Of a stretch of 64,000 nucleotides of DNA, positions 9,378 through 54,066 are shown piece by piece; within the stretch, counting starts at the first letter, position 1, and each line of letters opens with the position of its first letter. This DNA comes from Gnetum montanum (lineage: Eukaryota > Plantae > Gnetophyta). Location of the stretch: NCBI GenBank assembly GCA_015680685.1, contig MNCI01002560.1:1-64000 (forward strand), read 5' to 3'. Below the pieces are notes generated by a model. The model ran no database searches. It was not told the DNA's origin and saw nothing but the letters and a program-made list of their open reading frames with translations. The position numbers and the translations under genes were made by a program.

Positions 9378-9384
9378 TATAAAT
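9378..9384 (+). promoter_or_regulatory. Candidate TATA box of the antisense gene in A
   Basis: ggcTATAAATagg ~150 bp upstream of candidate ATG 9527, followed by a (GA)n tract at ~9464-9482. Confidence 0.55.
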
Positions 9385-9526
9385 AGGGGTTTACCCCCTC
9401 GTAAACTCATCATTTTCATTGTTAGAGCCCAAGGCCCATACCCAGAGCGTAGCATGATTGCACAGAGAGAGAGAGAGAGAGAGCTGGTGTAGTGTAGTAG
9501 TTCTCAGGAAATTTGCAAGAAAGACA

Positions 9527-12500: not shown

Positions 12501-14200
12501 GGGGAGGAAGAGGTGATGATCCCTAGAATAGGGGTAATTGGCAAAAATTAAGAGGCTCTAGCCATAGAGGAAAGGGCCCTAGCCAACAAAGAAGGGGCTC
12601 CTACCATAGAAGAAAGGGCCTAGGTTGGTGAGGAAGAGGCCCCTGCCAATGAAGAGGAGGCCTCTGCCAATGAAGAATGGGCCCTAGATGATGAGGAAGA
12701 GGCCCCTACCAATCACAAAGAGGCCCCTACTAATGACCCTTTCATCAGGTCTAGTTCATTACTGGAGGGGCATATGAGTATTGAGGATGCTGCTATGCTG
12801 TTAGGTCAGCTAGAAGGAGAGGGGATGCATTTTGATGCTAGTGAGTTTGACCACTTGTTTAAGAATGTATTAATGGGTGACCCCCTTCTATCACCCCTGA
12901 GGGTTTTCTGGGTAGGATCTTTACACTATCATTTAGGTTGCTCATCAGCTTTATCATGGTTCTCTCCACTATGGCTAACATGTTTTACCATGCAATAGAC
13001 ACCATCGTTGATACTTCTAGCCCTTCTTTCATCTTCCTACGACCATGGACCAAGAACCCCAATAAATTTACTTTCATGGAGGGGGTGGTCGACAACATCA
13101 TCGACCGTCTGAAGTAGATCAACATAGAAGTGGGTAAGTTAAAGTTTCTATGCTAGGCTTCCTATATTGTTATAGTTTCGCTATGTTACTGTGACTAATG
13201 TTTTTCTGTGTGTGGTTGACAACCTCTCACCTCAAGTGGGACCCTAAGAAAGTAGTAGAGGTCAACACTATGCCTGAATTCCCACAGGAAGTAATCGAAG
13301 TACCTCGTCACATATACGAAGAGACAAGCAAATGCACGTTGTACTTGGCACACTCCCTATGGGAATGCAGGCATGTAAATGAAGAATTCTAGAAATGGGT
13401 GCAAAGGATTAAGAAGGAGAATGCTAATCTAACTACTGAGGTGGGGGATCTCCGATCCAGGAATGAATTCCTGTTGGCCTAGGATACTAATGATGGTAGT
13501 TGATGCACGACCATCATCGACTATGTAAGATATTGGATGGCCATGATGCAACAATGAAGCCACACATGAAATAATTGAATAGCAAATGCAAATGGATCTT
13601 CTAGCCTAGAAGAACCAAGATTGGAAGGACTACAACATGAAGGTTTACAAGTGGGGGCAGGCACAGAAGAATCACAAACACATGTATAAACTAGAATGTG
13701 CCACCTACCATAAGTAGTATCATGATGCTTCCATAAAGTTTCATACCTATGAGGTATTCCTTGGCATCATTGGTGCTTCTGGGGCTTATGAAAGGTTCAT
13801 GCAACAAGTGATAGTTATTGAATCTCCCGAAAGGGAGATGACTTTTCCTATGGATGAGACAACTAATGCCACCTTTTCTCTAGGACCATCAAGATGGATA
13901 GCCATAGAGAAGGAGAAAGTTGCAGCAAATGCTAATATGGGAGATAGGAATTGGACCTACATTACTGAGGAGGAGATCTTGCAATGCCTCACAGTTAGCC
14001 TAGATCAAAGACCCCCTGAAACAGATGCAGGGCCATCTTATTTTAGTCACTTTTATCTATTTATTTATGGTGTGATAATTTATTTTATAAAATTTTTTCA
14101 TAGCTCTAGCTGATTTTTTTATTTTCTTTGTTATGTAGGATCCAAACAAAACCATAGGACCCACTAAGGCAGGGGATGGTGGTGTAGCCGAAGAATCATA
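9527..14200 (+). pseudogene. Multi-exon gene antisense to element A, lying between PR and RT; PMD (plant mobile domain/MAIN)-like core, acidic repeat, coiled-coil C-terminus
   Basis: GT-AG introns 9646-10424 and 10871-10966, with others downstream. Peptide LADSFSEKANRFCTRIH..FEINDQLFADLFGVPYDG resembles the PMD motif ERW..TxTF..MTITLxDV..LLGLPxDG. Exon-by-exon similarity to B 29590-34508. Confidence 0.72.
12560..12740 (+). repeat. 21-bp coding-type tandem repeat (EEEAPAN-like)
   Basis: gaagaggcccctgccaat(gaa) units encoding acidic heptads. Confidence 0.8.
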
Positions 14201-14699
14201 GCGTAGTGGTAGAGAGTTTTATTATTATGTTTGGATTCTCAAAAAAAATTTTAAGCCTTATTGATTAACAATTTTGAATGGGGCATGAAGGAGAAAAAAT
14301 TTATTTCATCTTGGTTAGTGTGTTGTATTTGTTTTTAGTCTATTTTTTGTCTCTCTTTTTTATTAATTAACTAAGCTCCTTAGGAGCATCTCATTTTAGT
14401 TTTAGGTCATTTCAGGCTATAACAATCGGTTAAGGCCATTCTGAGCCATTGCTAGGTTTAGGCCTTTTTGGGCCATTGGTTGATTGTACAGAAATTCTTT
14501 TTGCCATTTTTAGGCCTTAGCGGGCTGTTTCGTGGTGTAAACAGTGGGTGTAATGTGAATGGTTCAAAGAAAATGAGGTAAACACTAGCATAAATAGACA
14601 AATATGGAGTAAACAATGTGTAGAATGAACATATGGTTAATGTAAGTGGTGATCATTTTGGAAGCAGTGTAGTAGTTACGCTAACGCAAGTAACGATCA

Positions 14700-17600
14700 T
14701 TCTTGTAGCTGCTTCCTAACCCATCGTGGGCTCAGTGACGCATACAGTCAAGGGGCTTTGTTGTGGTATTCTTCTATGTCATTATCTACCTCTTGAAAAG
14801 GCAACTCGGCCCACGTAGTTTCATTTTTTGAGCCAACGTTTTGGGCTAGCTCATTAGCCAAGCAGGTAGCCTCAGTGGGGATAGTTGCTTCATTTTTACA
14901 GGTTATTATTTCTGAATCCTACTCCATATTGACATTGTTTATTGCTTGGGTGGCCTTTTTGTCACCATATATTACCACCTCCCTGCCCATGTACGGTAAG
15001 TGGATCTCTTAATCTATGGATGAAGAGATGGCCCTGAGTTGGGCTAACCATGGCCTCCCCAAGATCAGGTTAAACCCAGGCATCTTGTGTTGACTGACCC
15101 AAATTTGGATGAATAGGGGTCCTGTTGTTGCCTAGCCCTTCTCAGGTTCATCCTTAATGGACTCATCATAGAACATCAACTAAACTAGCCATGGTTCTTC
15201 AAGTGTAGAAGGAAGCATAACTGCATGAATTGCTTTCTCCTCCGCCGGTATGTTTTTGTCAATCAGTATCAACGTCAACATGTGAACCAAGGCCTCGTGG
15301 TGTGCAATGGAGGTCATTACTAGGTCATATAGGCTTATGATTATATTCTTTTATTTTAGGGCCTATTTGACCTGAGTAAGGGCATTTAGAAGGTCCTATC
15401 CACTTTCTTATTGTTTACTATCCTTCTCTTCCTCCATTCATCGTAGGAGACGAATCTCTTGTGGAGGAGAAGTTTCAAGTTTAGGGCTACACCTTCTTGG
15501 ATGGGATGGTGATGATTGTGTGCATGTAGGAGCATCAACTATTGATGATTGGGGGGGCGTAGGCATGGAAGACAAGGGCGTAGTATTGGGGGGACCTATT
15601 GTGGTATGTTCCTTGGTTGTCTTGTCCATCAGACGCTCTTCCCCTTTTCTTGAATGAGGAGGCTATGTGGTTATCTTAGATTGGCTCTGTGTGGTGGTGC
15701 CAGTTGAGGGTTTTGGCCCCCTAATGACAAATGGTGTTTGTGGTGTTAGCACGGGTGGCGACATAGTTTTGAACACAAAGGGTGTAGGGTCAGATGTTCT
15801 AGGGGGAACCTAGAGGATGAAAGGTTTTTGTGGCATCTTTTTTTGTTGTTGTTAGTGTCGCTACATTACATTGAGGCACATGAACCACAAATAGCTACTA
15901 TGGTGGTTCTGGGTTACTATCAATGCCAATTGTGTTGATGACATATCCCACGTTAGTGGCATTGAGGGGGTCCTTGTAGACATGCATGAATTAATTTTTG
16001 GTGCAGAAAGGATTTCTTTCATCTAGAAATAACTTTCCTTGATCAATTATGTGTTGGATGTCATCTTTTAATGCTAGATAGTAATCTATGTCATGAGCAC
16101 AAAGTTGATGGTAGTCACAGAATCATTCCAACCAGAAGTTCTTAGTAACTGGAAGCTCATTGTGCATAGCCAAGGAGGGGTTCCTAAGAAGTTCACAGTA
16201 CCATTGATATCACTTGGTCGCCTCCTTCAACATCTACTTATGTTGAATATACCAAGCCCCCAACAATTGCTTCAGAAGTTCTAAAGGCTTGACAGGTAGA
16301 GGGGCGTATTTGGAGTGATCTTTATGCTTGAATTTGGGTTTAGGCTAGGTTGATGCCTCTAGTGTTGAAGTTGAGGGTTGAGTAGCGTTGTTTAAGCTAG
16401 GCAGGGGGTTAGTTGAGGTTGTGGCCACCTTTTTGTCATCATTGTTGTTGTTTTTGGCCTCGTTTTCCACAGTGGCCACTGTGGCTATCGCAGCCTTGCT
16501 CTTCTCTTTGTCCTTTTTGGCATATGTATTTTTGTAGGAAACATAGGTCGGGCCTTTACTATCTTTGGCCGTGTATTGGATGCTCTTTGTTTGGGTGAAA
16601 GCTTAACTGAGAGAGTGTGGGGCTAGGTAGTATAGTTTCAACTTAATAAAGTTGTTTACTACCCCCTTGAAGATAGCCAACAGATGAGCCTTCATGATAG
16701 GCTTATGGATCTCATTCAGGGTAGCGTTCCACCACTGTATAAACTATTGCACTGACATAAGTGGGTCTTTCTTAACACTCATCAACTGATCTATTGTGAC
16801 TTTTGGCTTTAAATTATACTTGAAGCAGGTCACAATCCGAGTCAACACCTCCTGAAGAGTTGAGATGGAGGTGCATGGGAGCACATGGTACTAGTCTAAA
16901 GCTTTGCCCATTAGAGACATAGTAAGGACATGGATAATAGTGTGTATCCACTACTACAACAACAAAGATTCAAATCTAAATGTGACTAGATGTGCATTGG
17001 GATTGTCTTCCTTGTTGTATTTTGTGAATTGGGGGAGTGGCATCCCAGGAGGTAAGATGAGCATGGGAATGGCTAGACTAATGGGGTCATCATGGTAAAA
17101 ATCCATGACCTACATTGTATTGGAACTGATGGCTTTGAGACATTTAATCTCTTCAGTGGGGGTCTAGATAAGTTGAAACACTTGGTCCAGACCCTATGAT
17201 GCTGCAGATGGTTGTGGGGTTGCTTGAGCAACCGTCATGTATGTCGATGGGGGTTGTGATGTAGAGATAGAAGCCTAGCCCATGGGGGGCACTATTGGTG
17301 CTGCTCTTGTGCATGACGTTGCTTGGGTCATCCACCACCCAGTGGGTTGTGCTATTGATGTGGCAGCCGTTAATGGGACCATGGGATTGATAAGTTGCCC
17401 ACTTGGTGGGGCAGCCCATCGCCCCACTCTAGGTTGTACTACATGCGTAGGCTGGTGGGCTTGGGGTTGCACGTAGTATGATACTTGAGAAGGTTGGTTC
17501 ATAGGTAAGGAAGGGGCTGGGGCCCACCACGTCATTGAGACTAGGTTGGCTACTAGTGGTGGAACAGGTGTAGATGAGAGAGCAGAAATGAAGTTCACAT

Positions 17601-18539: not shown

Positions 18540-18543
18540 AAAC

Positions 18544-20401
18544 TGTAGCAATCGAAAACATTAGTGGCTGGGACATAGAGAGGATGCCAGGCAAACAGTT
18601 TAACCCTGGATCTATGTGAGCGTCATGCTGAAGAGAAATGGAAGTAGGGTGCCCTAAATGGTTTAGTTGATCAGATAGTGGCTTAATCTGTGTATCTTAA
18701 TCTTTCATAAAAATTTGTTTCCAAAGAGAGACACGTGAAGTAAATCGACGATCACCAAATGTAAAGCGGTGAAAATAGTGCAAAACAACGATGATAGTAA
18801 GAAAATAGCAAAACAAACATGGGTGAGAAAGTGCACTACCCCAAGGTCACGAGTTTGATCCTTTACTTTACTAAAAGGTGTACAATAGAACACACAACAC
18901 AGAAGAGGCACAACTCACACACAATAGTATGGTCGTAGATCTCTGAGTTGTGGAGCCAACCCACAAACTCAAAGCCAACCCGAGTGCTATAAATTTTCAA
19001 CTATGCTCTCCAAAAGCCAACTTAAAAGTAAATCAATGCTAAAAGCCAATAGCCAACCCAACAACCAATTTTTTTTTTGCCAACCCCCTAAGCATTGTTT
19101 ATTGGGGTATTTATACTGCTAGGATCAAGAGAAAAACCTGGTCTAGATAACACGTTTCTTAGGCCTCACAAGGTGCAAACATGGTTGTACTATGTAGGTG
19201 TGAGATGCTGGAGGTGAGCTTTGTTATGCTGTGACCATATTGCTGAAATTGCATGTGCCAAAATCCAATGTGCCAACAATGAAAGCAATGGAGCCAATGC
19301 TCCAGGACTATGTCTTCCCTAATCTTACAAGCAGGGTCAAGCATAGAAACAATTTTTTGGGGATTGGCCAGGGGTATGCAAGATGAAGCAACCTTGTTGA
19401 TTTTTTTTGCCAAAGAGATACCAGGGCGAAAAAATCATTTCCAACAAGTTATAGAGCTAACCGATGATGTCCAGTGTTGCACTACTCATGCTATTCAACA
19501 CATTGGCATAGCATAAGTAACTGCTCACTTCACTATGCTACGCTACGTAGCGTAGCATAGCATAGCCACTAGGTTTGACAAAAAAATTGTGTACAAGCCA
19601 AAAGAATTTATGTGAGGCTTGGTCAGGCAAACAATTGTGACCTTTGTTCTCCATATGCCAGAAAGCCTTTGGGTTTTCTGAATTCATCTTTGGAACATTT
19701 CTATTACTTTTGCATTGTTGCTACGCTGTGCTATGCTATGTAGCGTAGCACAGTGTAGTAGCTAGTGTATCATGCTTTCTTGTTAAATCTACCATTTTCT
19801 ACCAAGAAACCTTGCTCGAGGCTTGAGGGCTAAGTGGGACAACGAGTTTTGGAGGCCAAAGAATTGCCAAGTGCAATCTCCTTGTCAGAGTCACTTGGCA
19901 AAAGGGGGGGGCGCCTTTGTGTGCTTTGTCCCTGTTACTCTCTACTACGCTACATAGCATAGCACCCTATGTTGGTGGAACAAGTCTACTTAGTGGTTGC
20001 AACATGAGAAAATGCTTTGGAAGACAAACTTTTCATCAATTTACATCTTGGATGCTTGATTTATTTCTTTGAGGCTTGCTATGCTGCGCAGCGTAGTGTA
20101 GCGTAGTAAATTTCTATGCTAGAAAACTTTCTGAACTATTTTTCTCATCTCAAACACTTTCGACAACTCCTATCATGGTCCTTGAGTAGACTACCGATTG
20201 GGTCAATTGTCCGATTGGGTAGGCTAGAGAGTCCAGCAAGCCTATTAACCTTGGAGATAGAAAACTTACTGGACTGTACAATCTATCCTTGGTGCCTACA
20301 TTGTTTTGTCAGCCCATCATGATGCTACACTTGTGGAAGTCCTTGCCCAAATTCCAAGACTCTGCTGAAGCATGAGGGCCTTGAAATTTTATGGTGTTTC
20401 A
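18544..20401 (-). repeat. Element A 5' LTR
   Basis: tgtagcaatcg...ggtgtttca followed by TSD CATAG. Confidence 0.95.
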
Positions 20402-24128: not shown

Positions 24129-25507
24129 TGAAACACCACCAAAATTCATGTTGCAACCTTCATTTCCCAGCTTGAGGCAAGGATTCCTTGTAAATGTAAG
24201 ATATGTTTCCCATGAGCTATAATCTTGCATACTTCAACCTTTTGGGATAGAATAAATGCTTCAAACGTTTTTATGGCCTTGCTTCCCAAGTAGAAAAAGG
24301 TATCCCATGTTCACATTTTGGCATGGGAAGGACAAACATGCCTTAAGAATGAGTAAAATTAACATTTCCATTTTTTATAGGGTATAGCTTCAACTACACT
24401 AGAGCCATCAACTCTGATTGGTGCTACAATAGACATGGTGCTATAGTAGACAGAAAGTTCTATTCCATTCCAAGAGATGACAGTGGATACCATAGTCACC
24501 ACCAAGATCCAATAGAAGTACAATGTTGGAACTATTAGGACTTTCATTTTTTGAACATTAGCCAATGTAGTCACTCCAACGTTTTAGCAAGTTTTCAATG
24601 AAAGGATGTGACAACATAGTTGTAGCTTCAGCATAGTCCACCAAAGCTAGTGTAGTAAGAATGGTGCCAACATAGTCACAAAAATTCATTTGCTATTTAT
24701 TGCAAATGAATTGATTTTGTGGTTGTAGTCCATACCAGACTTACTATAAATGGTGACTATGTTGAGATTTAATAGTCATTGCATTTGCATATTAACACCA
24801 ATATGTTAGAAATCATGTCCATAGTGCATAGACTCAAAAATAACCATATCAACCCCATATATACCAAATGTAAATACAATATTCTAGTTTCAAATTTTTT
24901 GGCATCTACAACCTTCAAAATAGTGCTAAACTTTCATGACCACCAAATCTCACTACAATCATATTTTCACTTTTTTGTACAAAATCTAGTATTCTGCTAT
25001 GTACATAGACTTCTACATTGTTGTCATTACACTAAAAAGTGGAAACCCATTTCTATAGCCAGACCCTAGTAAAAACAAATGAAATGTTGTGAGAAATTGG
25101 AGTTGGTAAGAAATTGAATTGTAGAGTTGTCATAGAACACAACTTGCCTTCTTCAACATAGTTCAAGCTACTACAAGAAAATTCTAGTGCTCTTAGCATA
25201 AAATCAGTACTTCGTGAACCTTATTCTTTATTTCTATTTAAATAAAGTTATTATTCATGTTGTGCAAGTTTTAGTTTACATTTTCATTTCTACATCTATT
25301 TTCACTTCAGATTTGCAACTTTTACTTCATTTTCATTTCCATTTGTAGCTTCATTTATACTTTTGTAACTCCCTGGGTGATCAATATGACTATTGAGGGA
25401 AACTTAAATTTTGATTCCAAAGGCCTCTAGGATTTAGGGTTAAAACTATTCTAGTGCTTGGATTTTTTTGGTTTTCATTCCAACAACCAAAATTTCTAGC
25501 ACCAACA
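24129..25507 (+). repeat. Element B 5' LTR
   Basis: tgaaacaccaccaaaattcatg...ctagcaccaaca; repeated at 52624-54061. Confidence 0.93.
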
Positions 25508-26269: not shown

Positions 26270-28856
26270 GAGGGTATATGACCTCAAAGACCCTACTTTC
26301 ATCAAGTGTAGGTAATCCTTAAGGCTTAGGGAGAAATGTTTTGAACTTTCAATCATAAATGAAGATCATTATATCTATATTTTTATCAAAATCTAGGCTA
26401 TCATGCTAATAAAATTGTGTGGAAGAATAATCCATAAGGGAGTATGAGCTCATCCACTAAGATGGGAAGGAATATATTCCTTCCCTATATGACCAAATAC
26501 ATCTCAATGAAACCTATGCTCACATCTTAACTTAGTTGATTGATATGGATGATGAAGATAAGAAGCAAAACTTGGAGAAGTAACAATAAGAGGAGTATGT
26601 GTTCAAGGTAGAATCCTAGCTTGAAAACATCCTAACAGGGTTGTTCCAACAATCAATCCCCAAGACTATGATGCCTTCCTCTACCCCCTTTATCTTTTTC
26701 ATGGGCAAAATTTCATCATCCTTTATCTCGTCCTACTTAAAGATGTTTGGTCCTACACTAGTCATAGTTATATACCAAATGCAATTGGTGTTATAGGCCA
26801 TCACATTTCATCTCTATGTCATTTTCCACCCAACCATGGCTTGTACAAACTTTGTTGCTGATTTTAACCATCACCAACTCATTGACTAATTAGGTGTGGA
26901 CCACTATGGGACGCCAAGCAACCAAGGGATACCATACCATCCTTTTTTATTTGTGCCATACATACTAGTACAAATATCTTACCTCTTGTTTGGCCTACCA
27001 ACCACAATAATAATAGAACCTCTCCCCTTCATTCTACAACTAATAGCAAGGTCACAAGTCTTCCAAAAAACATCACAACCATTTGTGCAAATCCCATAGC
27101 CAACAATTATACAACATGACTTGGATCAGACCTTCTAAATGATCTAGGACCTAATGGAGAAGCTGAAAAGGCTCAAAGTATCAAGATTATCAACTTTTAC
27201 TAGGATGATTCCATTATCCCTATGGTTCCACACATGAAACTTCCTCCTGGTGTCCCTATCCCTTAATTTAGTAAGTACAATGGATGAAATAATCCCAGTT
27301 CTCATCTTATAACTTTTTGATCTAAGTGCTTGCTATTACAACCATGGCCACACACCATAATGAGGATCTTCCCTATGTGCCTAATAGGAAAAGCAATTGA
27401 CTAGTACTATAGCTTACCTAGAGGATCTATATACTTAATGAAAGACTTGATAGCTTAATTCATTAACTACCTTAACTACATCTTGAAGCCCAATACTACA
27501 CTGGAACAACTAATGAAGGTCAAACAAGAATCACTTGAACCAACATAGAAGTTCATCCAACAATGGAATAGTCTACTAAATAAGATACTAAAACCTATAG
27601 CTAAAACCCAACTTTAGGCTATATTCAAGAGGATAGTTAATTATTTTATCAAGTCTTAGCTATACTACCTTGATCCATCATCCCTTAGTCAAGCATTTTC
27701 CCAAATTGAAAACATAGAGGATGCCACAGAAGCTAGTCATGACCCTAGTTACATGACATACAAGAACCAACACATGTGGAGAGATAAGAATAGAGGTAAA
27801 AATAATAATGTAGTTGTTGCAATGATGGCCAACAAAGGCCACTTCCATCTCATATGTTCCCATGGCCTACACAACTCAAGCTTCCTTAATGAGTAAACCA
27901 TGAGAGTAACCCAAATTTATAGAGGAAAAGAAAGAGGCTAGGCCACAACAACAACCTAAATACAAACTCTACATTTTGGGTCATATGGAGGAAGTTGAAA
28001 ACAAAAAATTAATGACCATAAACAAAGACTTCGTTAATGTGATGGAATAGGTAAAGTAATCACTCAAGTAGAAGAACAAAACCTTGAGCTTATATGACCT
28101 AGTCATGACTTCTGCTACTCACTATGAGGCACTAGTTAAGATGTTTACCTCTATTCCTATTAGTGAGGACATCCTTACTAATGAAGAGTCTATCCATGTA
28201 GTAATGGTACCCTCTTCATCTAAGGAATCAAAATCAACATCGCTAGTATTTCATGATAGTGAAATTAAGACAAATCCCCAAAATGATCAGGCAACCAAGG
28301 CATCCCTCTTTGCAACCATATATATAGGACAATAAAAAGTAAATAGGTAGATAATGAGGTGACAACCAATGTCATAACCTATACCATGATTTTCACTTTC
28401 ACTTCAGCACTTAAAGCCTATAATGAATCATAAGCTGTAGTCAAAGGCTCCATTTCTCTAGATTTTTTCATAGGAAAATAGTTCCCCATAATATTAGATT
28501 TCTTGGTAGTAGAAGAAACACTTGGGTTCAACCTCATCTTGGGAAAACCTTCACTTGCCCAACTAGAAGATATGCCTTCACCTATTCACTAAGAAATTCA
28601 CCTACCTTACACGAAAAGTGAAATCATTATCCATGGTGATAGTTTAGTCTCTTTAGCTATTAACAATGTTAAAATAGAACAAGGATCTAAAGTGGAGTTT
28701 CAATAGGAAATTCATACCATTTTTCATGAAATCAAAAGAGGTGATAGAGTAGAAGAGACCAAAGTAAATAATGATGAATCCATCAATGCACTATGGGAAG
28801 GGCTCCCCTTCAGCATTGTCAATGAAGGAGGAGGATAATATAAACTACTACAAAAG
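26270..28856 (+). pseudogene. gag: Element B gag-protease
   Basis: HMKLPPGVPIP*FSKYNG*NNPSSHL, LSLYDLVMTSATHYEALV, VDNEVTTNV (degenerate D[S/T/N]G site), GFNLILGKP. Confidence 0.78.
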
Positions 28857-29589
28857 GTTTGTATACATTTTCTAATCTCTTGAAGATTAGGAAACACCTG
28901 CACAAGTGATGTATGCTTCAGATCCTTATGCACTTATAACCTTGTAGCTATATCGACCTTACTTATTTATGTTATCTCATTTTTCCTTGTGTTAAATTTA
29001 AAGTTTCCTATAGTTTAATGCTTACTTTGGTTTTACATTCTTTTACTGTTAAAGATTTTTTTCCCAAAAGATAAAAACCTCATATAAATCCTTAAAGTTG
29101 AAAAATCCATAAAATTTTTTTTAAAAAAATAACAAAAAAGTATGTTTTCTTTTATGTATCATATTATCCACCATGGCCTTAAACATGCAAATATTGCATG
29201 ACTCACCATGACCTAAAACTAGCAAACAACAATATAACATGTTTTTACTTTAGTTTATAACCTTGCTTCTTAGCCATTTCAACCCTTTTATCAGATTATA
29301 ACCAAGTTTAGCCAATGTGGCCTCAAAACATAGATTACAATGTAGAACTGTAATGTGAGCAAAATGAAAACACTAGAACATTATAACTAGAATTAAAACT
29401 AAAACTTAAAATTAAAATTCAAATGTCTAAAACATCATAACCATAGCCACATGATGTGGAAGAAATGTCCAGATAATAAACTATTAAACAATAATGTTTT
29501 TTTTCTATCACTAGCCATACATCATCATCAACATGAAACCAAAATTCTAAAATTGAAAGGAAACTAATGAAAATAAGAAGTAAATATGG

Positions 29590-32500
29590 AAAAGGTGAAG
29601 GATCATTTCTACCCTATCCACTAGGGCTACTAGTGTCATCTAATGTCTATAACATGATAACACAAAACTAATCAATAATTAATGCACATCAAAACAAAAT
29701 GAATAACTTAAGCAAAAATAAAATGTAATAAAACTAAAGATAAAACAAGCAAACTTAAGATGGTTCTGGGGCTGCATGTTCTATGGGAAAGTTCTAAAGA
29801 CCAACCTCTAGACATTAGAGAAGTTGATCTTTATACATGTTAGCCCATTCTATATCCCCAAGAGTAATTCCTATGAGGATATTAGTTGTATCAGCATCAC
29901 TCCATGTAGCTAGCTCATGCAAAAACATGACGATAGTTATCTCCCATTAAACAATAGTTATTTGGTGAGTAGGAAAGTTTGCTACAACCACATTCTTTAC
30001 AAATATTTTATAAGTCTCCTCTAAGTTAATGTCCATCATGAATAACTCTAGTTTTCAATGCTTTGTAGAGTCCTCCTATAGCTACCTCAGGTAGGCATCC
30101 TTAGCTTTGTATGTCCTCTTGTAGTCCTTTTGTACGCAACCCTACCCAAGAACCCAAGCATAGTAATCCTTCCATTGGAGAGCCTTGCAGTTTTTGAGAT
30201 GAATTTGAAGCCTATATTCTACCAGTTCTCTAGCAAGGATAACCTTTCTATGGATTGAATTCTAGTAGCAAGAGCAACTTATCTCCTTGGTGCCCAAGCA
30301 GTCCTAGTTGAACACTTGCACCTTTATGAAGTCTTTACAATCCTTGAGGTCTTTCACCTACTTCTTTAGTTGTGCGTTTACCTTCGTTAATATCACAACT
30401 TGTTCCTATAGAGTTAACACAAAATAGTGCATACCTAGTGGCACCATTTTATAGCTTTTGTGGCACATTCTCTACATCAGGAGGTGAAGGAGGAAATGTT
30501 CACTGGTCAATTAGGATGTCATCTCAGTTTAGAAATCATAACCAACATAAGACAAAATCCAAAAAATAAAATTAGCTTAATAATTAAAAAAAAATTAATT
30601 AAAAATTTTTTGATAAAAACTTCATAACCATAGAAAATTATATGAAAACCAAAAATGCATAAATCATAAAGGAAAAAATGAGTTAGAACTCTTACCAAGT
30701 TCCAGGGCTGTCTATTGCAACTAGTTAACCATGTCTTTAGCTACATCCCACATGAATTCAAACTTATCTAGGGTCTACCATGGTTACATCCAAAAGCTAG
30801 AAGTGGAAGCCTTAGCTTAAGGTTCTTGGGCTACAACATGCATAATAAGCAAATTAAGAATTATGATTATGATCAAACATGAACCAATGAAAAAGAATAA
30901 CAATGCATAAAATAAAAAATCATAAGTACCTAGTGGATCCTCTAATGAGATAGTAGAAATCTCACCTAGTTGTTCATTCTTAATGAGGGCATCAAAATGA
31001 TCTATGGATGGAGGGCATAAATCCTTATTTTCCTATTACTGTAAGGCCTCATCCTCATAATGTTTTAATATTTCCTCTCCTTGACATTGTCGTTCCTCCT
31101 CTTCATGATGCCTTTGCTACTCCTTAGTCACTGCTACTGCTACCATGGCTTCCTACTCTAGTTACTTATCTACAAGTAGACCAATCATAAAACATTGAAC
31201 AACTTAGCATATTTTTTCTAATAAGAAACATTAAACCAACTTAAAATAAAACTTTTAAAATAGATTAATAAAAAAAAACCAAAATAGAACATACCTCTAA
31301 CATCATGTTGTAGCTTTCTAAGCTTGATTATCAATTTCTTCTTCTTCATGAGTTCCTCAATCACTAGTGCTATATCATCCACCAAGGACCTCTTAAGCTT
31401 TGTCCTAGCTATGTCATCAACTACAAAACACAATGCTAGGATCCCTTTAATCTTACCTAGCACTATGATAGGCTCCACCCCCATGCTGTTGGGGGATGCA
31501 CAATGCCTATCACTATTCCCCTTGGTGGCAATGAATAGTAATTCACCCACATCATCCGCTAAGTCTTGGGCACATGTGGTGGAAGCAAAATGCCTTATCC
31601 AAGGCCTAGTGAGTTGGAATGGATCTTGAGTCACCCATTGCCCAACCTTCCTCACCATAAGGAACTCAAAAAAACTTCATAGATAAGCTATGAAAAGTGT
31701 GAAATGCACATGTCACTTCATCTTGAGATTTGTTCTAATTTTCATGACTTCTAACTATATTAAGAAATCAAATGGGTAGCCCAATTAAATTGAGCACCCT
31801 TAGTGAGTACCTGATTCATTGTCCAAGATTTCTCCATATCTAGAAACTTCCCCTATGATAGTAACTTAGGATATGCATGGGATTAGAATAAGGGATACAT
31901 CTCTCTAACATGTAGATCCTAGAATTGGCTTAGAGAGAATCCCTTACTACTCCACCTACCTCCCAATTTTGGTGGCAACTAGTATACCATCATTTGGGAC
32001 ACCAAAGGGGTTACTAAAGTCACATCATGAACACTAGTAAAGAACCTTTTGACTCCTTGGATGAACAAGTCAAGGATGTTCAACATCTCTATAATGGAAA
32101 TGGTAGGCTTGGGCCCATAAGGAGGTTAAGCAAGCTCACATGAATGATCCTTGCATGGATAGCATTAGATGTCTCATCAAAAAAAAAACTTTGTGCAACT
32201 TCCACCTCATCAAATTTGAGTATCGAGATCTCCTCTGTATGGATTAAAGTGATAATTGTAGCTTCAATTGATGGAATAACCTCTACAACATAACCAAATA
32301 CAACCAATTAGCCTTAACATAGATGCACCATGTAAAACAAAATACAACTAGCATAGCCAAATTAGAACAAAACCAACACAACTACTTAAATAACCAAAAC
32401 CAAAATAACTTTAACAACTACATAACTAGAAAAAATGTTAACATAGAATTAACCTAAAATCAGTAAGAAAACCACTCACTTTGCTTATATGATGCAAGCA

Positions 32501-34508
32501 TCATAGGAGCTCTAGGAGATGGATTTTCTTCTATGTCATTAAGAGATGGGTTTGCCCACCAACTATGTATTGTCCCATTTACTAGAAATCTCTTATAAGC
32601 CTTAGGGTGGAATCTAATGTTTTCTTCAAAGTCACCCTTGAATTGCTCCACTACTACAAGCCTCACATTTGGGCTTTTTGTCAACACTTATAAAGCTATG
32701 TGAGCTAGGAGCAGGAAGTTGTCACCTTTGATAAACCATCCTAAACCTATAGGAAGTGAGAAAACAAGAAAAAATTATAACTAAAGCATGTAACAAAATA
32801 AGAATAACTATAAACCATAAATAACAACTTATGTACCCCTTTACATGATAAATGGTGCTTGGAGGATTTTGGAACCATGTGTGCACACAGTGGCTAACAA
32901 TCAAATTGTTGTCCATGTTATACTAGTTGAACTCAAGCATATTGCAAATTTTAGATAATTTGTGAATTCCCATTGTAGTTGTGTCATCATTGTTCTATCC
33001 CTCCACATGAACATTAGGTTGATCAATCAAGAACTTGATGATTAGGCTAGAGGAACCAATCTATGATCAAACCATTAGACTATAATTTTGGAGTTGGTAA
33101 GTAAGGAAGTCATTGAACCTTGGCCTAAACCATATTCCATAATTTCACCAGTTCATATGAAAAGTTGAAGTGTTGGATCCGACAAAATGGATGTAGCAAA
33201 AGAGCCCCACCATCTCTATAACCATGAAGATGGGCTTCAAGAAGGCCCTGTAACATTCAACCACAACTGTTATGACATGCAAGCCAAAGAAAAAACTAAA
33301 AAACATCAAAAATATTAAACAAGATAACCTTTTTATTCACCCAACATGGAAAATAACAATTAGAAAAAAAATCAAAATATGTTCCAAGTCCACATCCAAA
33401 ATCTACACTTCACACTAGAATGACCATAGCAAATCACTTATGAAAAATACCAAAAAACATTTATTTGGATCTAGACCACTTGCAGAAACTTTTAAAAATG
33501 TAAAAATATCCATAGGATCATGGGATGTTGAGGAAGAAAAATTTTCCAAGTGTCAAAAATGGCCATCTTCACAAGGGTAAATGTGTAACAACCTTAAAAC
33601 CACGATTTCATGCAACCGTAGGAAAACATCTATAGAAAATTAATCACTTATCTACTTTTTATTCTTTAATAGCCATTAGAATTGTAAAACTATGAACTAA
33701 AACCTCATAATCATAAACCACGAAATTTATTAACCATATTTTCAAAAGAAATTACCAAATTGACCTTACCATAGTCTTCATGGTGGAAGCCCATTTTCAT
33801 GCGAGCTTATAGAAACAATCATAAGAATCAAAATGTTTATCAAAATTTCATAATTTGAAATTTTTTGGAATCCTCAAATCTTAAACTAATAACCCATAAT
33901 CATCAAACCTAAAATTTCATAATCATTCACCATAGAAAAATTACCAAACTTAGACAAACAATGGCCTAAAAGTAGAAAACCCACTTGATGTACCCTCAAA
34001 AAAAAAAAACAAATAAAAAAGAATATCCATAAAGTGAAACCAAGTGATTCAAAAATATTTTGGAAAAAAAATAGTAGCCAATAATTTCATGACCTTAAAA
34101 ATTAAAAAATGTACCCATTTTTTCAGAAAAAATTTCAAATGTAGCATTGTTTTCTTAGACAAAAAAAGCAAAAACCCATGGAAATCATGGAAAAAAACAT
34201 TTAAAATTTAACGTAAACAAAACCCAAATCCCAAGTAATGTCGAAAATGAATAAAAATGACCTAGATCTATGATGGTATTTTTAAAGAATCATAAAATAA
34301 TGAATATGCAAGCCTAGATATGAGAAATAGGATAAACCCTAAAAATTGAATACATGGAACAAATGGAAGGAACTTATGAGAATGTGTACCTAGGAAAAAA
34401 TGGTGCTAGATCTTTCTCCAATACTTGGATAAGGAGATGTGAAAATCCCTAGGTAGCTACATTTTTCTCCTTCAATGTAGGATTCTTGGTAAGATCCTTC
34501 TTGTTCAT
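29590..34508 (-). pseudogene. Multi-exon gene antisense to element B, between PR and RT; homolog of the gene in A
   Basis: Candidate start MNKKDLTK (34508); introns ~33248-34390 and 32747-32836; peptides LSKICNMLEF..IVSHCVHTWFQNPPSTIY, ILDLFIQGVKRFFTSVH, FGVPNDG align to A. Confidence 0.7.
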
Positions 34509-35049
34509 TGTGTGGAAGACTAGTGCACAAAAATATACAGGATCCTTGGTCTTTGGTAGTCCTGAGGTGACTATGCTAACATTGTTGGTGAGAAAGGCCT
34601 TGACTACACTAAAAATAGAAAATTTTGATGTCAATAGGGCTTCAATATGGGCAAAATAGTGAAAATATGTACAAGTAATTTCTTTTGCAAGTTTTTCCAA
34701 ATAAAACCAAGCCATAAACCTAAGCACCAACACTAAAACACTAGTTTCCATTCATAACACTAGTTAACTTAGTTAGAAAATTGGAAACTAGGAACTACAC
34801 TAGGTTTTTTGAAGAATTTTTGCAAAAAATTAGTAATTTTGGATTGGTCCCACTAAGCACACCAAAAATGAATGCAAAAAGCCTTGACTATGCTAAGTGT
34901 TTCCAACATCCAAGTTAGACTACATTGAGGTTGGGATTCATGAAAACCTTGGTATAACCAACACTTCCATCCTATATCCTTAAATCCTATTATGAACTCC
35001 CTATAGCCTTATAATGTGATTAAATGAATTAAGTTTTAACAAAAATTTA

Positions 35050-37440
35050 TGACTATGCTTGGGAATCCCAAGGACTACTCTAGGCTAGCATAGTCCCAAC
35101 TAATTCCTAGCCTAGTCCATAGTGGAATAGACTTCTCCAAGCCCATTCAGCCTCTAATTGACTCCAAATGATCATCCTACCTCACTTAACCCATAACATA
35201 GCTCTTAGAAACATCATAATATGGTCAAATGCATTCAGTTGTGCTAGAAATTAATCATTCTCCATGACTAGGGAAACTCAGGAACTATACTAAGCCAATA
35301 TAGTCCCAGATAATGCCCATTGTAGTCCATTTGTAATCCTTGAAATAAGCATGTACAAACTCAAATAAACCTCCAAAGACCTCAGAACTATTTTTGCCTA
35401 AACATAGAAACAAATATTCAATTTTTCTAAGACAAAGCTCCATTTTCTATAGTGACTACACTAGGCCTACTTAGGCACTAGTGGTAGCTAGTGTAGTCCA
35501 CCTAGAAAGCCTTCAATAACTCACCTCCAAGTCAATCTCACCTCTTGAGAACCTCAAAACACCATATAACTAAATACTAGCACAAATGTTACCACCTTTT
35601 CCAATTTTTCAAGTGTCTAGACATCAACTACATTGATGAAAAATTAGGGCTACATTAGGCCAACATAATCCCTCTCCAAGGCTAGTGTAGTCTCAAAAAA
35701 ATTGTTGAAATCCATTTAAAAACTATTCAAATAAACCTATAGTAAACCTTAAAACACTATCTAAGCTTGTTTGAGTAGAAAACCTACTTTTTCACCATTT
35801 TGACAATTACCACCTTGAATATGTTGGAGAGATAAGGTAACTACGCTGGGCTAGCATAAGTCACTACCTAAGCCTAGTGTAGTCCATAAATGAATAATTG
35901 AAATATGCCAAAATTAAATTAAATTAAATTAACTTTTGGAAGGCCCTTCGATCTTGTAAAAACATACCTTGACCTCAAAATCCTTTATTGACCATGTCAA
36001 AGTGCTAGCTATGCTTGGGAAAGTTGGGACTATGTTGTGCAAGTGTAGTCACTACTAGGGCTCAACATAGTCCACATTTTGAGGCTCAATCCAAGTCAAA
36101 TCCAAGAATTAAAATACCTTTTTTGACTATAGAACCTTGCCAAGACACATTGAGATCATCAAATTTGGGCGTTAAGCCAAAATTCACTATTTTTGACTTC
36201 CAAAACCTTAACTACACTAAGGAAAATGGTGACTACATTGGCCTAGAGTAGTCACTTTCAATCCCTCATTTAGTCCACTCAAAGTTACTTAAAATGTATA
36301 GTAAAATGACCAAATCCACTCCCAATAAATCCTAGACCCTTAACAAAGCCTTTTTGACCATGAAATCCAACTTTTCTCATCATTTTTTATCATAAAATAT
36401 TGGAATATGGTGAAGGAAGTTGGGACTATGCTAGGCTAGTGTAGTCCTTGCCCTAGGCCCAACATAGTCCATTTGAATTTGCAAAAAAACATTGATACAA
36501 ATAACTCAAAATTTACTTTTAGGAGTCCTAGGGTCCATTAGAGTTATTTTTAGTAATAAAACTCATTTTTTCCAAGTTTTTAAACCTACCTATGCTGATG
36601 GGAAGTTGGGACTACGTTGGTTCAGCATAGTTCCTACTAGGGCCCAACGTAGTCCACTTGAAGATAACCAAAAATACCCAAAATGTTGTTCAAATATACT
36701 CCTAGAAAGACATAGAACCATATTGGATCATGCCTAAAGCTTGGAACCTTTGGAATCAAGAAAAGATTCATCCTTTTTCATCATGTTTTCATCCGTATCC
36801 CTCAAATACTCTTGGAATTACATGCCCAACATAGCCATAAGGTCTTTGATCATTTACAACCCAAACAAGCACCAAAACTAGTAATTTTGACACTAAAACC
36901 ATAACTGGTAGCACCAGTGAGCTCTAAAGCTCATTGGCATGGTCAATTGAGTTCTAGAACTCACCAAAATCCATTTCCCATTCATGAATACAGTGAAGAA
37001 GCTGGTGACTATGCTAGACCAGCATAGTCATAGTAGCAAAGGAAAATGTAACAACAACAAACAACAGTAAATAGCTTAGAATAGCCAAAAACTAACACAA
37101 AATTCCCAAAACCTCATTCCCATGTTACCTAACTACAATTCCACTTTATTTCATCCCTGGAAACTCCATAAACTCATCTATTCCCTATGACTACATTAAG
37201 GCCTTCTAGTCTAGCATATTCACAACTAAAAACATGCATTTTAGCCTTAAGAGAGTTCAAATTAGTGCCACAACTTGCAAATCTTCAATACCTACACCTT
37301 GCACTAGCTTTTTGGATCATTAGGAGCCTAAAAGTGACCATATTAAGCATGAAAAACTATACCTAAATGTTGACTATGCTAGAGAATTCATGACTACATT
37401 GGGCCAGCATAATCACTAGTAGGACCTAATGTAGTCACAA
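35050..37440. repeat. Degenerate array, ~190-bp period, with palindromic core GACTACGCT-N5-AGCGTAGTC
   Basis: Cores at ~35073, 35283, 35454, 35649, 35840, 36027, 36231, 36424, 36610, 37007, 37190, 37392. Confidence 0.8.
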
Positions 37441-38146
37441 GTAAAAGTGTTAATTTTGCTTCAAAATAACCCAAAAGTGATCATCTAATGTGTCCAAAAT
37501 CTCCCAATGACCCTATAGCCCCATATCATGGCCCACTAAGGCCTAAGACTGGCACAATCTAACCATTTTTAAATAGTATTATCCATGTTTTTCCACTTGT
37601 ATTCTATTTTGATGGGTTTGGCCTTATTTCATAGAGTTTTGACTTATTTTGCATTCCTTGCCCTTATTATTAACAATTGACCTCCCCTAGCCTTTGGTTT
37701 GATTACATTTATCTATTTTTTCACTACCATTGACCTTTATTGTCCTCTACCTAGCCTTTCATTAATGTTAATTAATGAGGTTTGGCCATCTTTGACCATC
37801 ATTTAACATCATGTATCCATGGCCTACCAAAGCCTTAAATTGGCAACATGGCCTGCCAAGGCCTAAAATTGGTCTAGTGCAATATGGTTTCCCATATTTG
37901 ACATTATTTTCCATGTTCTTATGATGTTTCAACTTATTTTGACCTTCATTTAAATTTCTTCAGCCTTCATTCCATCTAATTTACCTTTACCTACATCCTA
38001 TAGCCTTAGTTAACATTGTTCTCATTTTGATTAACACTAGGATTGTATGTCTTTGGATATTTACTAAGGTATTTTATATTATTTTAAGCATTATTTACTC
38101 AGTTTTACCCAACTACCACTTAATGTACTTATTTTTGATATGCAAG

Positions 38147-41100
38147 ATTGGAGTATGGATACCTAGAAGTAAATCAATTTACATTTAAGCCTAAGTAAAC
38201 CCCATAGTGATGTTGAATTATGTATTAACCTTGATTGGATAGATCGTGAACTTCAAAGTCTTGTCAACCATATAGTCTGAATTAAAAAAACTCCAGAGTG
38301 GCCTAAGAACCTAGTTAAAACCTTAGACCTTAAGGTTGGTGACATAAATGAAGAATTTCTAGTTGTGATTCCTATCATAATGCAAAATGGTAAGGAGAAA
38401 ACACTAAAACTAAGTTCCTAACTAGAACCTCAATAGGTTTAAGCCATCACCAAGGTCTTGCAAGGTAACACTAAAGCATTTTCCTAGTCATATGAAGACA
38501 TGACAGGCCTAGATCCACACTTGGTTCAACAAAATATCATACTTAAACCTACCATTAGATGAATTAAGCAAAAGTTTCATAATATTAGACATGATTTAAA
38601 CATAGTAGATCATAATGAAATCATAAAAGTATATCAATTTGGTTTCATTAGAGCTGTTGACTATGCAAAATGGCCATCCAACATAATGGTAGTTCCTATG
38701 AAAAATAGGAGTATTCACATTTGGATAGATTTCCAAGACTTAAATAAGGCAACCATCAAGGATGACTTTCCTTTATCTAGTATTGATTAACTTATCAACA
38801 CCATGGTTTCCCATGCCTTGTTACTCTTCATGGAAGGGTTCTTGGAATACAACCATATTAGGATCAACCCAGAGCATCAACTTGCTATGACCTTCATGTC
38901 CCCATGGGATACCTTTTGCTATACTTTGATGTCATTTGGCCTTGAGAAAGTGGAGGCAACCTACCAAAGAGCTATGACATATATCTTTAGTGATTACATG
39001 CTAGGTTTGCTCAATGAATATGTAGATGATAGAGCTGTTAAGTCCAAAGTGGCCCATGATGATACATGTGATTTAGACCTTGTACTTAAATGATGCCTCA
39101 TATATGAGCTTAGGCTCAATCCCAAGAAGTATGTTTTTAGTGTCAAGATTAGTAAGATTCTTGGATTTGTAGTATCTGAAGTAGGGGTAAATGTTGAGCT
39201 TGATAAGGTTAAGCCCATATCCAACTTGGTTTCACCTACTAACCTTAAGGAGCTTTGAGGATTGCAAGGAAGGTTGCAATTTATTTTTAGGTTTATTGCT
39301 ACACTTATGAATAAGTTACAATCCATGTAGCACTTTCTTATGAAAGGAGTTCACTATGAGTGGACAACATAATGTTAGGAAGCCTTTGAAAATCTTAAAC
39401 AAGAGTTAGCACAACTACCAATAGTCTATTATCCAAAATAGGGTAAACTATTTTATATTGACCATGCCATGTTTGATGCATCTATTACCTCTGTACTTTA
39501 TCAAAACTAAGATGATAGAGTGGGGATGCCATTATACTACCATAGACATGCATTGGTCACACATGAAACCCAATACACTAAAGTGGAGAAGTATCATCTA
39601 CCACTAGTATTCTCATTAAAGAAGTGGAGGCACAACCTCTGTAGGAGCCAAGTCAATTTCATTTGCAAAAAACAACATGCTTATAGCCATAGCAATCATC
39701 ATCTATGAAAGTAGCCATATAACCTAATGAAAATCCATAATAGTAGAGTTTGACCTTCATTACATTTTCCAATCCTCAATGAAAGGTCAAGCTATAGCCA
39801 TACAAGTTACAATTTTACCTATTGATGACCATGCAACCATATATCTTGAGTTTCTAATGAACATGTCAACACTATCAGCCAAGTGCCCTAGGATTATGAG
39901 GTATTCATGCACTTTAATGGAGCTTCAACTACCCATGGGGAAAGTGCCATTTCCATCACCACATTCCCTTCTAATGAAATCTAATCCTTCACCTATCGTT
40001 CTGAGTTCCCATGTACCAATAACATAGTAGAGTATGAAGGTTTGATTAGAGTAATGATGGTAGCTAATGACTTCGAAATCAAGTGTTTAAAGATCAAGGG
40101 AAATTCAAAACTTGTTGTCAACCAAGTAACCAAGGTTTACACATGTAAATCCAAACATTTGCAATCTTATTGTGACTTGGGAAGGCAATTGATGCAATGA
40201 TTTATAGACATTAATATCCAACACATACCATAAAATGAGAACACTATACTTGATTCCATCACGATGTCAGCCCTTAGTGTGATACTAGATGTGTTTAGCA
40301 AGTTACCCACATTAATCATGGACTATAATATTTCCATCACACAAAGTACTAAGGATACCTCTATGGTCATACTTCATAAGGGAGCAATATGATGATATCA
40401 AGTTTTATCTTATGCATGGTGAAGCTTCACAAGGCTTGAATACTACTCAAAAGGACATTGTACATCAATAATCAAAATAGTATGTCATAGTAGGTGATAA
40501 TACATGATGTCGATGGTCCTACAATGATATATTATTAGTATGCTTCGGTAAAACCCAAGCTAGAGTAAGTTCAAAAGGACGTATGTGGGGAACATATAGG
40601 ACCTAGAGCTATGGATGCTAAGATTAAATGGTTAGGCTATTACTAGTTCTATATGAAAAATTATTACCTATAAGTGATAAAAAGCTATGATACCTGCTAG
40701 TGGCACAACAATCTCATACACATACCACCAATTGAGTTACATGCTACTTAGATCACTTAGTAATTTCAACAATGGGCTTTGGATATCATCAGACTATAAT
40801 CCCTAAGTCTTTCATAGGTCAGAGCTTCATCATCACTGCAACCAAATACTTTACAAAGTCTGTAGGTTCACCTTGGATAAGGAAGAGTACATCTAAACAA
40901 GTTTGTAGGCTCATCTTGGATAATATAGTAGCCTATTGTGGCATGCCTCTGATCATAGTCATAGATAATGGCCCACAATTTAGTATCCAAGAAATAAAAA
41001 TTTATATCATGACCTAGGCATTATTCATTATTTCTCATTGACATATTTTCCTAAAGCCAATGAAAATGTTGAAGCAAGTAATAAAGCCATAATCAACTTA

Positions 41101-41615
41101 CTCAAGAAAATGTTGAACGATAGCAAGTGCAAGTGGCATGAGTAGCTTTTCCACATACTTTGGGCTTATATAATGACATACCATACAATAATAGGTGTAA
41201 TCCCATATATCATTATCTATGGTTATGAAGCTATTTTTCATCTTGAATTACAAGTAGCATCACTCTGAATGACCCTATCCAACTTCATCAACAATGAACA
41301 AAATAAGAAGCTACTTATAATGGACATAGACTTGGTGGAGGAGCATTGTGTATGAATTCTTGTTCAAATCAAATGCTATCAAGAGAGGTATAAATATTAG
41401 CACCATCATAACGTAGATAAGTGCAAGATCAAGGAAGATGACTTGGTCCTCAAAGCTATCCATGAATATGCAAAAAAAAATTCAACCAATTGAAAAGGAT
41501 CTTTCTTAATTACCGAGGCCTACAACAATAGGGCCTATTGGATAGCATACATGAATGGGAATGAGTTGGGCAATCTAGTCAATCATTCCTATCTAAAGCC
41601 ATATTACATGTACCT
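38147..41615 (+). pseudogene. pol: Element B pol block RT-RH-aRH-INT
   Basis: DLNKATIKDDFPL, YVDDRAVKS, LNPKKYVF, CTNNIVEYEGLI..KGNSKLVVNQ, IVIDNGPQF, LWAY, NHSYLKPYY. Confidence 0.92.
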
Positions 41616-42626
41616 AACAATAGCCAACAAGTGAGCCTACTTTTCATGGCCTACCAAGGCCTTAAATTGGCAACACATGTGACCTTTGGTAATAAGTTTT
41701 GCTAATCATTCTATGTTTACTTATACATTTAATTGTAACAACATGAATTTTTTCATCTAGTTTTATTCTTCTCTTGGACTTGTACTTGTAGGGTGAAGCT
41801 ATAAGTCATCATGGAGGTGCAACTCATCACAGTGACAAGTCATCATGTAACCTCAATCTACAAGACTTGGTGAGTTTGTCTTACCATGAAAAGAGTACTT
41901 GGTTCATATCATTTCCATTACCATTCCCTTGAGCCCAATCCCATAACCAAATTATAACCTTCCTTACCTTGAATGTCAATGTTAACTAATGTTTGACACT
42001 CATGCACAATGGTTGTATGACATCCCTTCATCATGCTCCACCTTCAAGTCCATTGATTGTAACACACCTCATTCAATGGAAAGCCATCTATGCCAATGAG
42101 TATGGCACATCTCACTTAATGGGAAGAACAAGTTAAATCAACGTTGGAAAGAGAATCCAAATGAAGGTTTAACACCATGAAAAAAAGGAAACAAAAATGG
42201 TGAAAAGAAAATTTCCAATAAAGTGAGTAGCCAATGAAGCTTAAAGGACAAATCAGTGGCTCCAAACATGTAAAGGGAGGAGCCTAATAGCCAAACTAAC
42301 CTTGGAGTGAGATGTTGGTTTCTCAAATGCATTTTTCAAGTAAACCACACTTCAAAGCACAAAGTGTGAAGCTCAAATGGATTGCCCAACATGTCTATTC
42401 AACATTGTAGCCATGATGTCAATGCTTGAAATGCATTTTCAACCTTCATGATCATTTTCATATCACCTCATTACTTGTTACCTCATCAGAACCTCACCCC
42501 ATCATCATGAACACTCTTGGGCATGGTTTGACACTACTAAATCAAGCACAAAGAGGAAATGTTGGTGATGGACTTGTAGTGATGTTTTACATTCTTCCTT
42601 AACATCTCTTAGAAAAATCCTCCAAA

Positions 42627-43130: not shown

Positions 43131-43132
43131 TT

Positions 43133-52623: not shown

Positions 52624-54061
52624 TGGAACACCACCAAAATTCATGTTGCAACCTTCATTTCCTAACTTGAGACAAGGATTTCTTGAAAATGTGAGATACA
52701 ATCTTGCATACTTTTGGAGCAAAAGAAAAATTCTTTAAAATTTATTATTGCTTTTCTTCCCAAGTAGAAAAAGGTATCCCATGTTAGTATTTGAATTTGG
52801 GAAGGCTAAAACCACCTTTGAAATTGCTAAAATTAGCATTTACATGGTTTTCTGTATAGGTATATCCCCAACTACGCTAGAGCCATCAAATATTTCTAAT
52901 ACTATAGTAGACATAGTGCTATAATAGACGAGAAGTTCTATGTCATTCCAAGAGATGGAAATGGCCATCGTAGTCATTGCCAAGATACAAAATAAGTGCA
53001 ACATTGGAACTATTAGGATTTTCATTTTTTCCAACATTGGCCAACATAATCACTCCAAGATTTTAGCATGTTTTCAATGAAAGGATATGAAAGCATAGTT
53101 GCAACTCTAGTATAGTCCGTCAAAGCCAAAGCCAACATAGTAAGAAGGGTGACAAAATAGTCACAAAAGTTTGTTTACTATTTATAGTAAATGGATGGAT
53201 TTTGTGGTTGTAGTCCATACTAGACTTATTATAAATGGTAATTATGCTAAGATTTAATAGATGTTGTACCTAAAAATTAATGCTAATCTATTAGCAATAA
53301 TTTCAATAGTGCATAGACCCAAAAATAGTCACATCAACCTTTTATACCAAACATAAACAACATATTCAAATTCCAATTTTTTTGACATCTACAACCTTCA
53401 TAGTAGTTATTACCTTTCACAACTACCAATGTCCATTTCAATCTTATTTCCACTTTTTCTGGTAGCAAAAATAGGTACTACACTAAGAAAAAATACTCCC
53501 ATATAGTTTCCATTGCACCAAAAAGTAAAAATCAATTTCTATAACCACATTGTAGATCCTAGTGAAAACTAAGGAAAAGTTGCTAGAAATTGAGGCTAGG
53601 AAGAAACCAGATTGTGGAGTTGTCATAGAACACACCCTACCTTCTCCAATGAACTTCAAGATCCTACAAGCATCTTTTGGTCCTCTTGGCACAAAATATG
53701 TACTTCATGAACCTTATTCTTTATTTTTATTTAAATAAATTTATGGTTCATGTTGTGCAAGTTTTACTTTATATTTTTATTTCTACAATTATTTTCATTC
53801 TAGATCTGCAACTTTTACTTTGATTTTGTTCTTAGCTTCATTTTCATTTTTAGCTTCATTTTCATTTTCATTGCTAAAGCCATTTGCATCTCCATTTGCA
53901 CTTCTGTTTACACTTTCATAAGTCCCTGGGTGATTATTAAGATTTTCTAGGGCATCTTGAATCATATTTTTGGAGGACCTTGGGATTCAGGGTTAAAATT
54001 ATTTTGGTGCTTGGATTTCTTTTGCAATCCATTCCAACAACCAAAATTTCTAGCACCAACA
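52624..54061 (+). repeat. Element B 3' LTR
   Basis: tggaacaccaccaaaattcatg...ctagcaccaaca followed by TSD TGTGA. Confidence 0.93.
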
Positions 54062-54066
54062 TGTGA

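Follow-up and report, generated by a model that had tools for sequence, protein, structure and literature searches.

We found that two diverged Tat-type Ty3/gypsy retrotransposons, here called A and B, carry the same conserved gene on their antisense strand, between protease (PR) and RT. As read from the DNA, this is a real accessory gene, selected and multi-intronic, nested in what is probably a gag-pol intron. Its product may well be a nuclear DNA-binding regulator that would act on a CTACG(C/T)T motif in the LTRs, spacer and introns and keep the element transcribed, a reading that we favor tentatively. Both elements lie in the window, the whole stretch of 64,000 nucleotides of Gnetum montanum DNA that was analysed, which is CpG-poor, plant-like and built of nested retrotransposons.

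Element A occupies positions 1706-20401 on the minus strand, in the order gag-PR // RT-RH-aRH-INT. Its 5′ LTR (18544..20401) and 3′ LTR (1706..3599, with TG..CA ends) are 83% alike (K2P 0.17) and are flanked by the target-site duplication CATAG at 20402-20406 and 1701-1705. A primer-binding site, TGGTGCTAGAAGGAGGG, lies at 18539-18523 and a polypurine tract is present. The gag and protease region (14746..17136, minus strand) is decayed, while Pfam recognized RT, RH, aRH (RVT_3) and integrase in pol (5271..8715, minus strand). The protease of A is without a Pfam match, and we take it to be one from its position and a GFNLILG motif. Element B occupies 24129-54061 on the plus strand. Its 5′ LTR (24129..25507), beginning TGAAACACCA, and its 3′ LTR (52624..54061), preceded by a polypurine tract, are flanked by TGTGA at 24124-24128 and 54062-54066. 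The gag and protease region (27159..28860, plus strand) is again decayed, and pol (38147..41680, plus strand; RT, RH, aRH = RVT_3, integrase region) was placed by alignment to A and by Pfam. The LTR start TGAAACACCA and the type of primer-binding site are common to A and B. The initial annotation had called the LTR interiors of B unalignable; this stood for the comparison with A, where blastn gave no match, but not within B, whose two LTRs align with each other at 73% (K2P 0.27).

A and B are old, related elements. Both have the LTR pair, target duplication, primer-binding site, polypurine tract and RT-RH-INT order of Ty3/gypsy elements, and RVT_3 lies between RH and INT in each (E 1.5e-18 in A, 3.7e-10 in B). 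Since this additional RNase H marks Tat elements, according to the accessible text of PMC6317226, we assign both to the Tat clade. The RT-RH-aRH-INT order is reported from hornworts, ferns, Ginkgo, cupressophytes, gnetophytes and angiosperms in the available part of PMC13468544. RT-RH is 55% identical between A and B. Among the 120 matches listed of 1,106, database relatives were 38-45%, at most 45%, identical to their RT, and those named by organism were angiosperm proteins, bar one with a bacterial label. In a quick tree of the first 60 database matches (unlabelled, midpoint-rooted) A and B formed their own long branch, which decay lengthens. RT-based locus scans of viral and metagenome contigs gave no match, nor did Rfam over 1500-43000.

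A third LTR element of 10 kb (42627-52598) is nested in B just before the 3′ LTR. Its LTRs of ~500 bp differ by a K2P of 0.20, and it encodes protease, RT and SH3_Tf2-1. Between its 5′ LTR and protease we observed an antisense PMD-like ORF (44984-45553), which matched Pfam PMD below the cut-off (E 0.0095) and atlas PMD clusters at 0.92-0.93. In an element that is apparently chromovirus-like, an antisense PMD gene would be unusual. The pol of this element also holds a 62-nt tandem duplication with an N (49039-49164) that may be an assembly artefact.

In A the spacer between PR and RT is a predicted intron of 6,030 nt (8716..14745, minus strand, GTATGC..TAG); its removal leaves the joined frame off by one base, and small indels adjoin the donor. 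The predicted intron of B spans 9,286 nt (28861..38146, plus strand, GTATAC..AAG), and its removal joins PR to RT in frame. The donors align with each other (GTATGC at 14745, GTATAC at 28861), as do the acceptors (an AG with its last base at 8716 in A and at 38146 in B). The initial annotation had given the cassette in B as 28857..38146. The same antisense cassette is there, but the likelier start of the spacer is 28861, because only this donor joins PR to RT in frame and aligns with the donor of A. A donor at 28857 was rejected, as PR and RT are not in frame from it.

The spacers of 6.0 and 9.3 kb thus look like one Ogre-type intron. Ogre elements have an intron separating GAG-PROT from RT-RH-INT, 274 bp on average, that is spliced from a subset of transcripts, as stated in the accessible text of PMC6317226. 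A and B resemble Ogre, as far as the available parts of PMC6317226 and PMC4408406 describe it, in the non-coding region, bearing splice signals, that stands between gag-PR and RT-RH-aRH-INT, in the 5-bp target duplication and in the size of ~19-20 kb. They differ from it in that their far longer spacers hold an antisense gene of 8 exons, whereas the available Ogre text describes no gene in the 274 bp, and in an RT that shares only 38-45% identity with the relatives listed and stands on its own long branch. In six RNA runs of one species label and low depth we found no spliced read or joint for either the spacer or the antisense gene; matches were sparse and mostly partial, which is no evidence of silence. 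A second check found RNA support for 0 of the 15 joints listed, with 528 further joints outside the listing.

The antisense gene comprises ~1,100 codons in 8 exons and has the same place in both spacers. In A (9527..14201, plus strand, read against the B copy) the exons are 9527-9645, 10425-10870, 10967-11239, 11329-12360, 12484-12911, 12999-13133, 13223-~14039 and 14139-14201. In B (29614..34508, minus strand) they are 34508-34390, 33247-32837, 32746-32480, 32282-31295, 31169-30930, 30830-30696, 30522-29755 and 29646-29614. All seven introns of B are GT..AG. Four introns of A are fully canonical, the acceptors of introns 3 and 6 end in AA, and the donor of intron 7 is doubtful or non-canonical. 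Exon 1 measures 119 nt and exon 6 135 nt in A and B alike, and T content is higher in all 14 introns (0.38-0.59) than in all 16 exons (0.14-0.32).

The initial annotation had aligned peptides of A and B around one intron. All the peptide pairs that it quoted are present, and the introns in question (A 10871-10966, 96 nt; B 32836-32747, 90 nt) are indeed GT..AG, phase 2 in the upstream frame and followed by gttt after the acceptor ag in both copies; in B a frame shift is needed just after the 32836-32747 junction to reach LLLAHIAL. The tBLASTx comparison that it had proposed, run on the spacers alone, gave a collinear chain with E 1.7e-38, and the best single match reached 51.9 bits, whereas 100 locally shuffled controls did not exceed 31.3 bits (best E 0.001). 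The introns lie at homologous codons as claimed, and seven are shared, not one. A frame-shift-aware alignment, to which the junctions were unknown, aligned 968 residues, 293 of them identical. In this alignment 5/7 junctions fell in the same column, one 1 column apart and one 4 apart, with equal phases in 7/7; the junctions had been picked by eye with both copies in view, and their match is not a blind test. Junction 5 is phase 0 in the alignment and phase 1 in the frame of exon 6.

Upstream of the gene in A, a TATA-like box (9376..9387, plus strand) stands 150 nt before the antisense ATG and has no aligned counterpart in B. A decayed tandem array with a 54-nt period lies further upstream, at the RT end of the spacer (8810..9218), and related GCTAGTTTAAGGTC-type units with a 31-nt period follow the integrase at 4978-5252. 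In B the gene is preceded by non-coding spacer (34509..38146).

We compared the two copies by codon position. Identity of the antisense gene at positions 1/2/3 was 0.50/0.61/0.34 over 558 in-frame codons, as against 0.68/0.76/0.40 for pol and 0.59/0.75/0.35 for gag-PR. Position 2 exceeded position 3 with p 1e-19, a value to be read with the fact that most codon blocks came from tblastx, which favours this pattern. Position 1 also exceeded position 3, which still establishes the antisense strand as the coding one. Fourfold sites were saturated in the antisense gene, gag and pol. At the DNA level, 6/8 exons aligned above shuffles (z 4.6-9.7), and none of the 7 intron pairs did (z -0.9 to 0.8). 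Judged from these two decayed copies, the comparison shows that the antisense gene has been under purifying selection.

Both copies are now broken, with 28 and 37 stops and 13 frame shifts. Within the aligned codons, the two copies have 13 and 21 stops in 558 codons of the antisense gene, 14 and 21 in 735 of pol, and 15 and 14 in 415 of gag-PR. Stop-bearing codons were private to one copy in 28/31 cases and shared in 3/31. As the stop density matches that of gag and pol and the stops are mostly private, the gene was open at each insertion and has since decayed along with the rest of the element. The DNA run X1 has contigs in all 30 bins of A. Its summed depth, which is not a copy number, was 11,153 for the exon-4 core, 11,635 for part of gag and 516 for intron 1; of 112,554 contigs, 95,502 were <95% alike. 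This depth and divergence point to the gene being carried by a large and diverged family. Part of the stretch is present in 9 of the 21 runs listed, under five organism labels.

These results bear on the idea that the cassette is a functionless passenger, or that only its antisense RNA matters. The broken state of both copies and the lack of a spliced transcript in the six low-depth RNA runs would fit such a passenger. However, selection at the protein level alongside saturated silent sites and introns that fail to align, a stop density equal to that of gag and pol, which places the decay after insertion, and the far more diverged contigs recruited by exon bins than by intron 1 in X1 make this very improbable. 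We conclude, in agreement with the initial annotation, that the gene belongs to the lineage by inheritance and has been under selection, as indicated by codon-position identity, unalignable introns, decay like that of gag and pol, and a shared location in A and B.

The predicted protein of ~1,100 residues is hydrophobic in its N-terminal part and has a conserved core encoded by exon 4. A basic patch reaches 27-28% K/R and an acidic linker 25-30% D/E; by eye there is a possible coiled coil, and the conserved C-terminal domain is 29% identical between A and B. In A a 21-nt coding tandem repeat (12554-12736, EEEAPAN-like) expands the acidic linker; it is absent in B. Pfam gave no match of note, and there was no profile match to PF10536 (PMD), ATHILA, Transposase_32 or PF04195, as far as the sensitivity of the tool reaches with decayed single sequences. 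With exon 4, phmmer found 0 matches among 1.84 billion representatives, word searches found 0 among longer proteins and 0 among near-length proteins at E 10, and searches of metagenome contigs and PDB sequences gave no match. AlphaFold models built on alignments of only 4 and 2 rows had pLDDT 35 and 34 and were unusable; Foldseek with these low-confidence models found no match at E 0.001. By eye, two motifs, FGVPxDG and, in B, aromatic-N-W, resemble what we take to be PMD-type domains. No alignment resulted between the protein and the PMD-like ORF in the nested element (hhalign E 0.36; z below 1). It is possibly a remote PMD/DUF1985 relative.

The gene could instead be the tamed remnant of a DNA transposon or host gene (a dead transposase, a TnpA-like or a chromatin protein) whose function is unrelated to the motifs. 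Entry as DNA would explain the introns, since seven introns argue, by inference, against capture via mRNA, and Tr28 ORFs of Tat elements have been suggested to be remnants of inserted elements (PMC4408406, in its accessible part). We consider this origin unlikely, as no transposase or host family was matched and no terminal inverted repeats were common to the two spacers among the 25 longest pairs listed for each. Such an origin is in any case compatible with the gene acting as an activator of its own element.

We then counted short words in the elements, with TG and CA accepted as decayed CG. In A the top word was CTAcgCT, with 61 copies compared to 6.1 expected in shuffles and 26 for the best word in any of 10 shuffles; 35/61 sites fall in the two LTRs, each a copy of the other. 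Among 8- and 9-mers, the top words in B were ACTAcgCT (24 copies) and GACTAcgCT (16 copies). The motif was concentrated in non-coding versus coding DNA, 57 to 4 in A (p 7e-13) and 42 to 5 in B (p 5e-6), and lies in the LTRs, in intron 1 of A and in the upstream spacer of B. Intron 1 of A (9646..10424, plus strand) is densest, with 10 in 779 nt. The spacer of B (34509..38146) holds 30 CpG-decayed ACTACG(C/T)T copies on both strands, many as short inverted pairs. In the LTRs and the spacer of B the two strands carry the motif about equally. Its flanks are element-specific: GCTAcgCT occurs 30 times in A versus 3 in B, and GACTAcg 8 times in A versus 40 in B. By an order-2 Markov control the motif was in excess in 3/9 regions; it was not above the control in the B 5′ LTR with leader, the flank or the nested element. 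The 5′ LTR of A contains a perfect 28-bp palindrome (19533-19560) of head-to-head motif units. An unrelated CpG-centred word, AGAcgTCT, piles up at 54062-59000 (16 copies vs at most 8 in controls), a segment that includes a repeat shared with 60065-60421 and is probably the LTR of another element. This pile-up suggests that CpG motif pile-ups may be common host-factor sites.

It is possible, and we keep it as a serious alternative, that the accessory gene acts at another step, by protecting or exporting unspliced genomic RNA in a Rev-like manner or by guiding integration, and that the motifs are host transcription-factor sites. The element must export RNA that keeps a 6-9 kb intron, antisense ORFs have been proposed to play such RNA-export and integration roles (PMC7264820), an unrelated pile-up occurs in another element of the window, and no DNA-binding family was matched. 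In contrast, a motif found about equally on both strands suits a DNA target better than RNA, the motif flanks differ between A and B, and the accessible text of PMC6317226 has Ogre splicing only a subset of its transcripts.

Regulation through the motif, the reading we favor, has a parallel in VANDAL transposons. VANC21 binds a motif of 9 bp that has accumulated in the non-coding DNA (introns, intergenic and terminal parts) of the element encoding it, and VANC6 binds a different motif (PMC5735166, in the text available). A and B likewise have a multi-exon accessory gene and a short motif enriched in the non-coding DNA of the element and differing between relatives. They are unlike VANDALs in that these are Mutator-type DNA transposons for which, in the same text, binding and demethylation by VANC are shown, and the parallel with A and B is one of layout only. 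The protein of A and B is without a DUF1985 match, and their motif is CpG-centred and mostly dispersed. VANC and PMD-C proteins have a common fold (bioRxiv 10.1101/2024.09.27.615353; PMC13547354), PMD-A is encoded by Gypsy elements (PMC5418596) and Tat elements carry PMD and coiled-coil extra ORFs (PMC4408406), each according to the part of the source available. The fuller proposal, an LTR retrotransposon with its own VANC-like anti-silencing, in which an antisense seven-intron gene of an unrecognised family, lying in a gag-pol intron, binds a CpG motif amplified and re-tuned by the family, is in our view doubtful.

We propose the following sequence of events. The spacer would be spliced from part of the sense RNA to yield Gag-PR-Pol, as in Ogre, and the unspliced RNA would be packaged, so that the gene is copied. 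The seven introns would survive reverse transcription as they read CT..AC on the packaged strand; 6/7 antisense introns of A read CT..AC or close on the strand of the element, and they would not be spliced from packaged RNA. The gene would have its own promoter, at the spacer end next to RT, and be transcribed from it. These four steps are well grounded. The fifth is weak: the product, with its exon 4 globular core, basic patch, acidic linker, possible coiled coil and C-terminal domain, may work like VANC or PMD-C.

Antisense extra ORFs are already known from Tat elements and common in them: PMD-CC in TatIII and V, Tr28/Transposase_28 in Retand and gene23 in maize Grande (accessible parts of PMC4408406, PMC7264820 and PMC11963269). 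The gene of A and B resembles them in being a selected accessory gene, antisense and lineage-wide, and in having a promoter of its own, tandem repeats nearby and suspected DNA binding. The same texts describe those as plain ORFs positioned after pol and before the 3′ LTR or upstream of gag, whereas this gene occupies the PR-RT interval, contains seven introns and has no match to PF10536 or PF04195. It differs likewise from the antisense TRP28 ORF of Retand, between pol and the 3′ LTR, and the 1.7 kb INT-to-LTR region of A has no long ORF. In the literature searched, we met no spliced antisense gene in the PR-RT interval, no antisense extra ORF interrupted by seven introns and no motif system of the VANC type in an LTR element; earlier Steinbauerova work and the supplements of PMC4408406 and PMC6317226 lie outside this coverage and could bear on novelty. 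Within it, the PR-RT position, the seven introns and the motif link appear new.

Copies that arise from spliced RNA are predicted, from this layout, to be missing the entire antisense gene. The function of Tat antisense extra ORFs is a stated open question (PMC7264820; PMC11963269, in the parts available). Since A and B each hold the gene and its candidate target motif in one element, in two diverged versions, a swap experiment could test this function directly.
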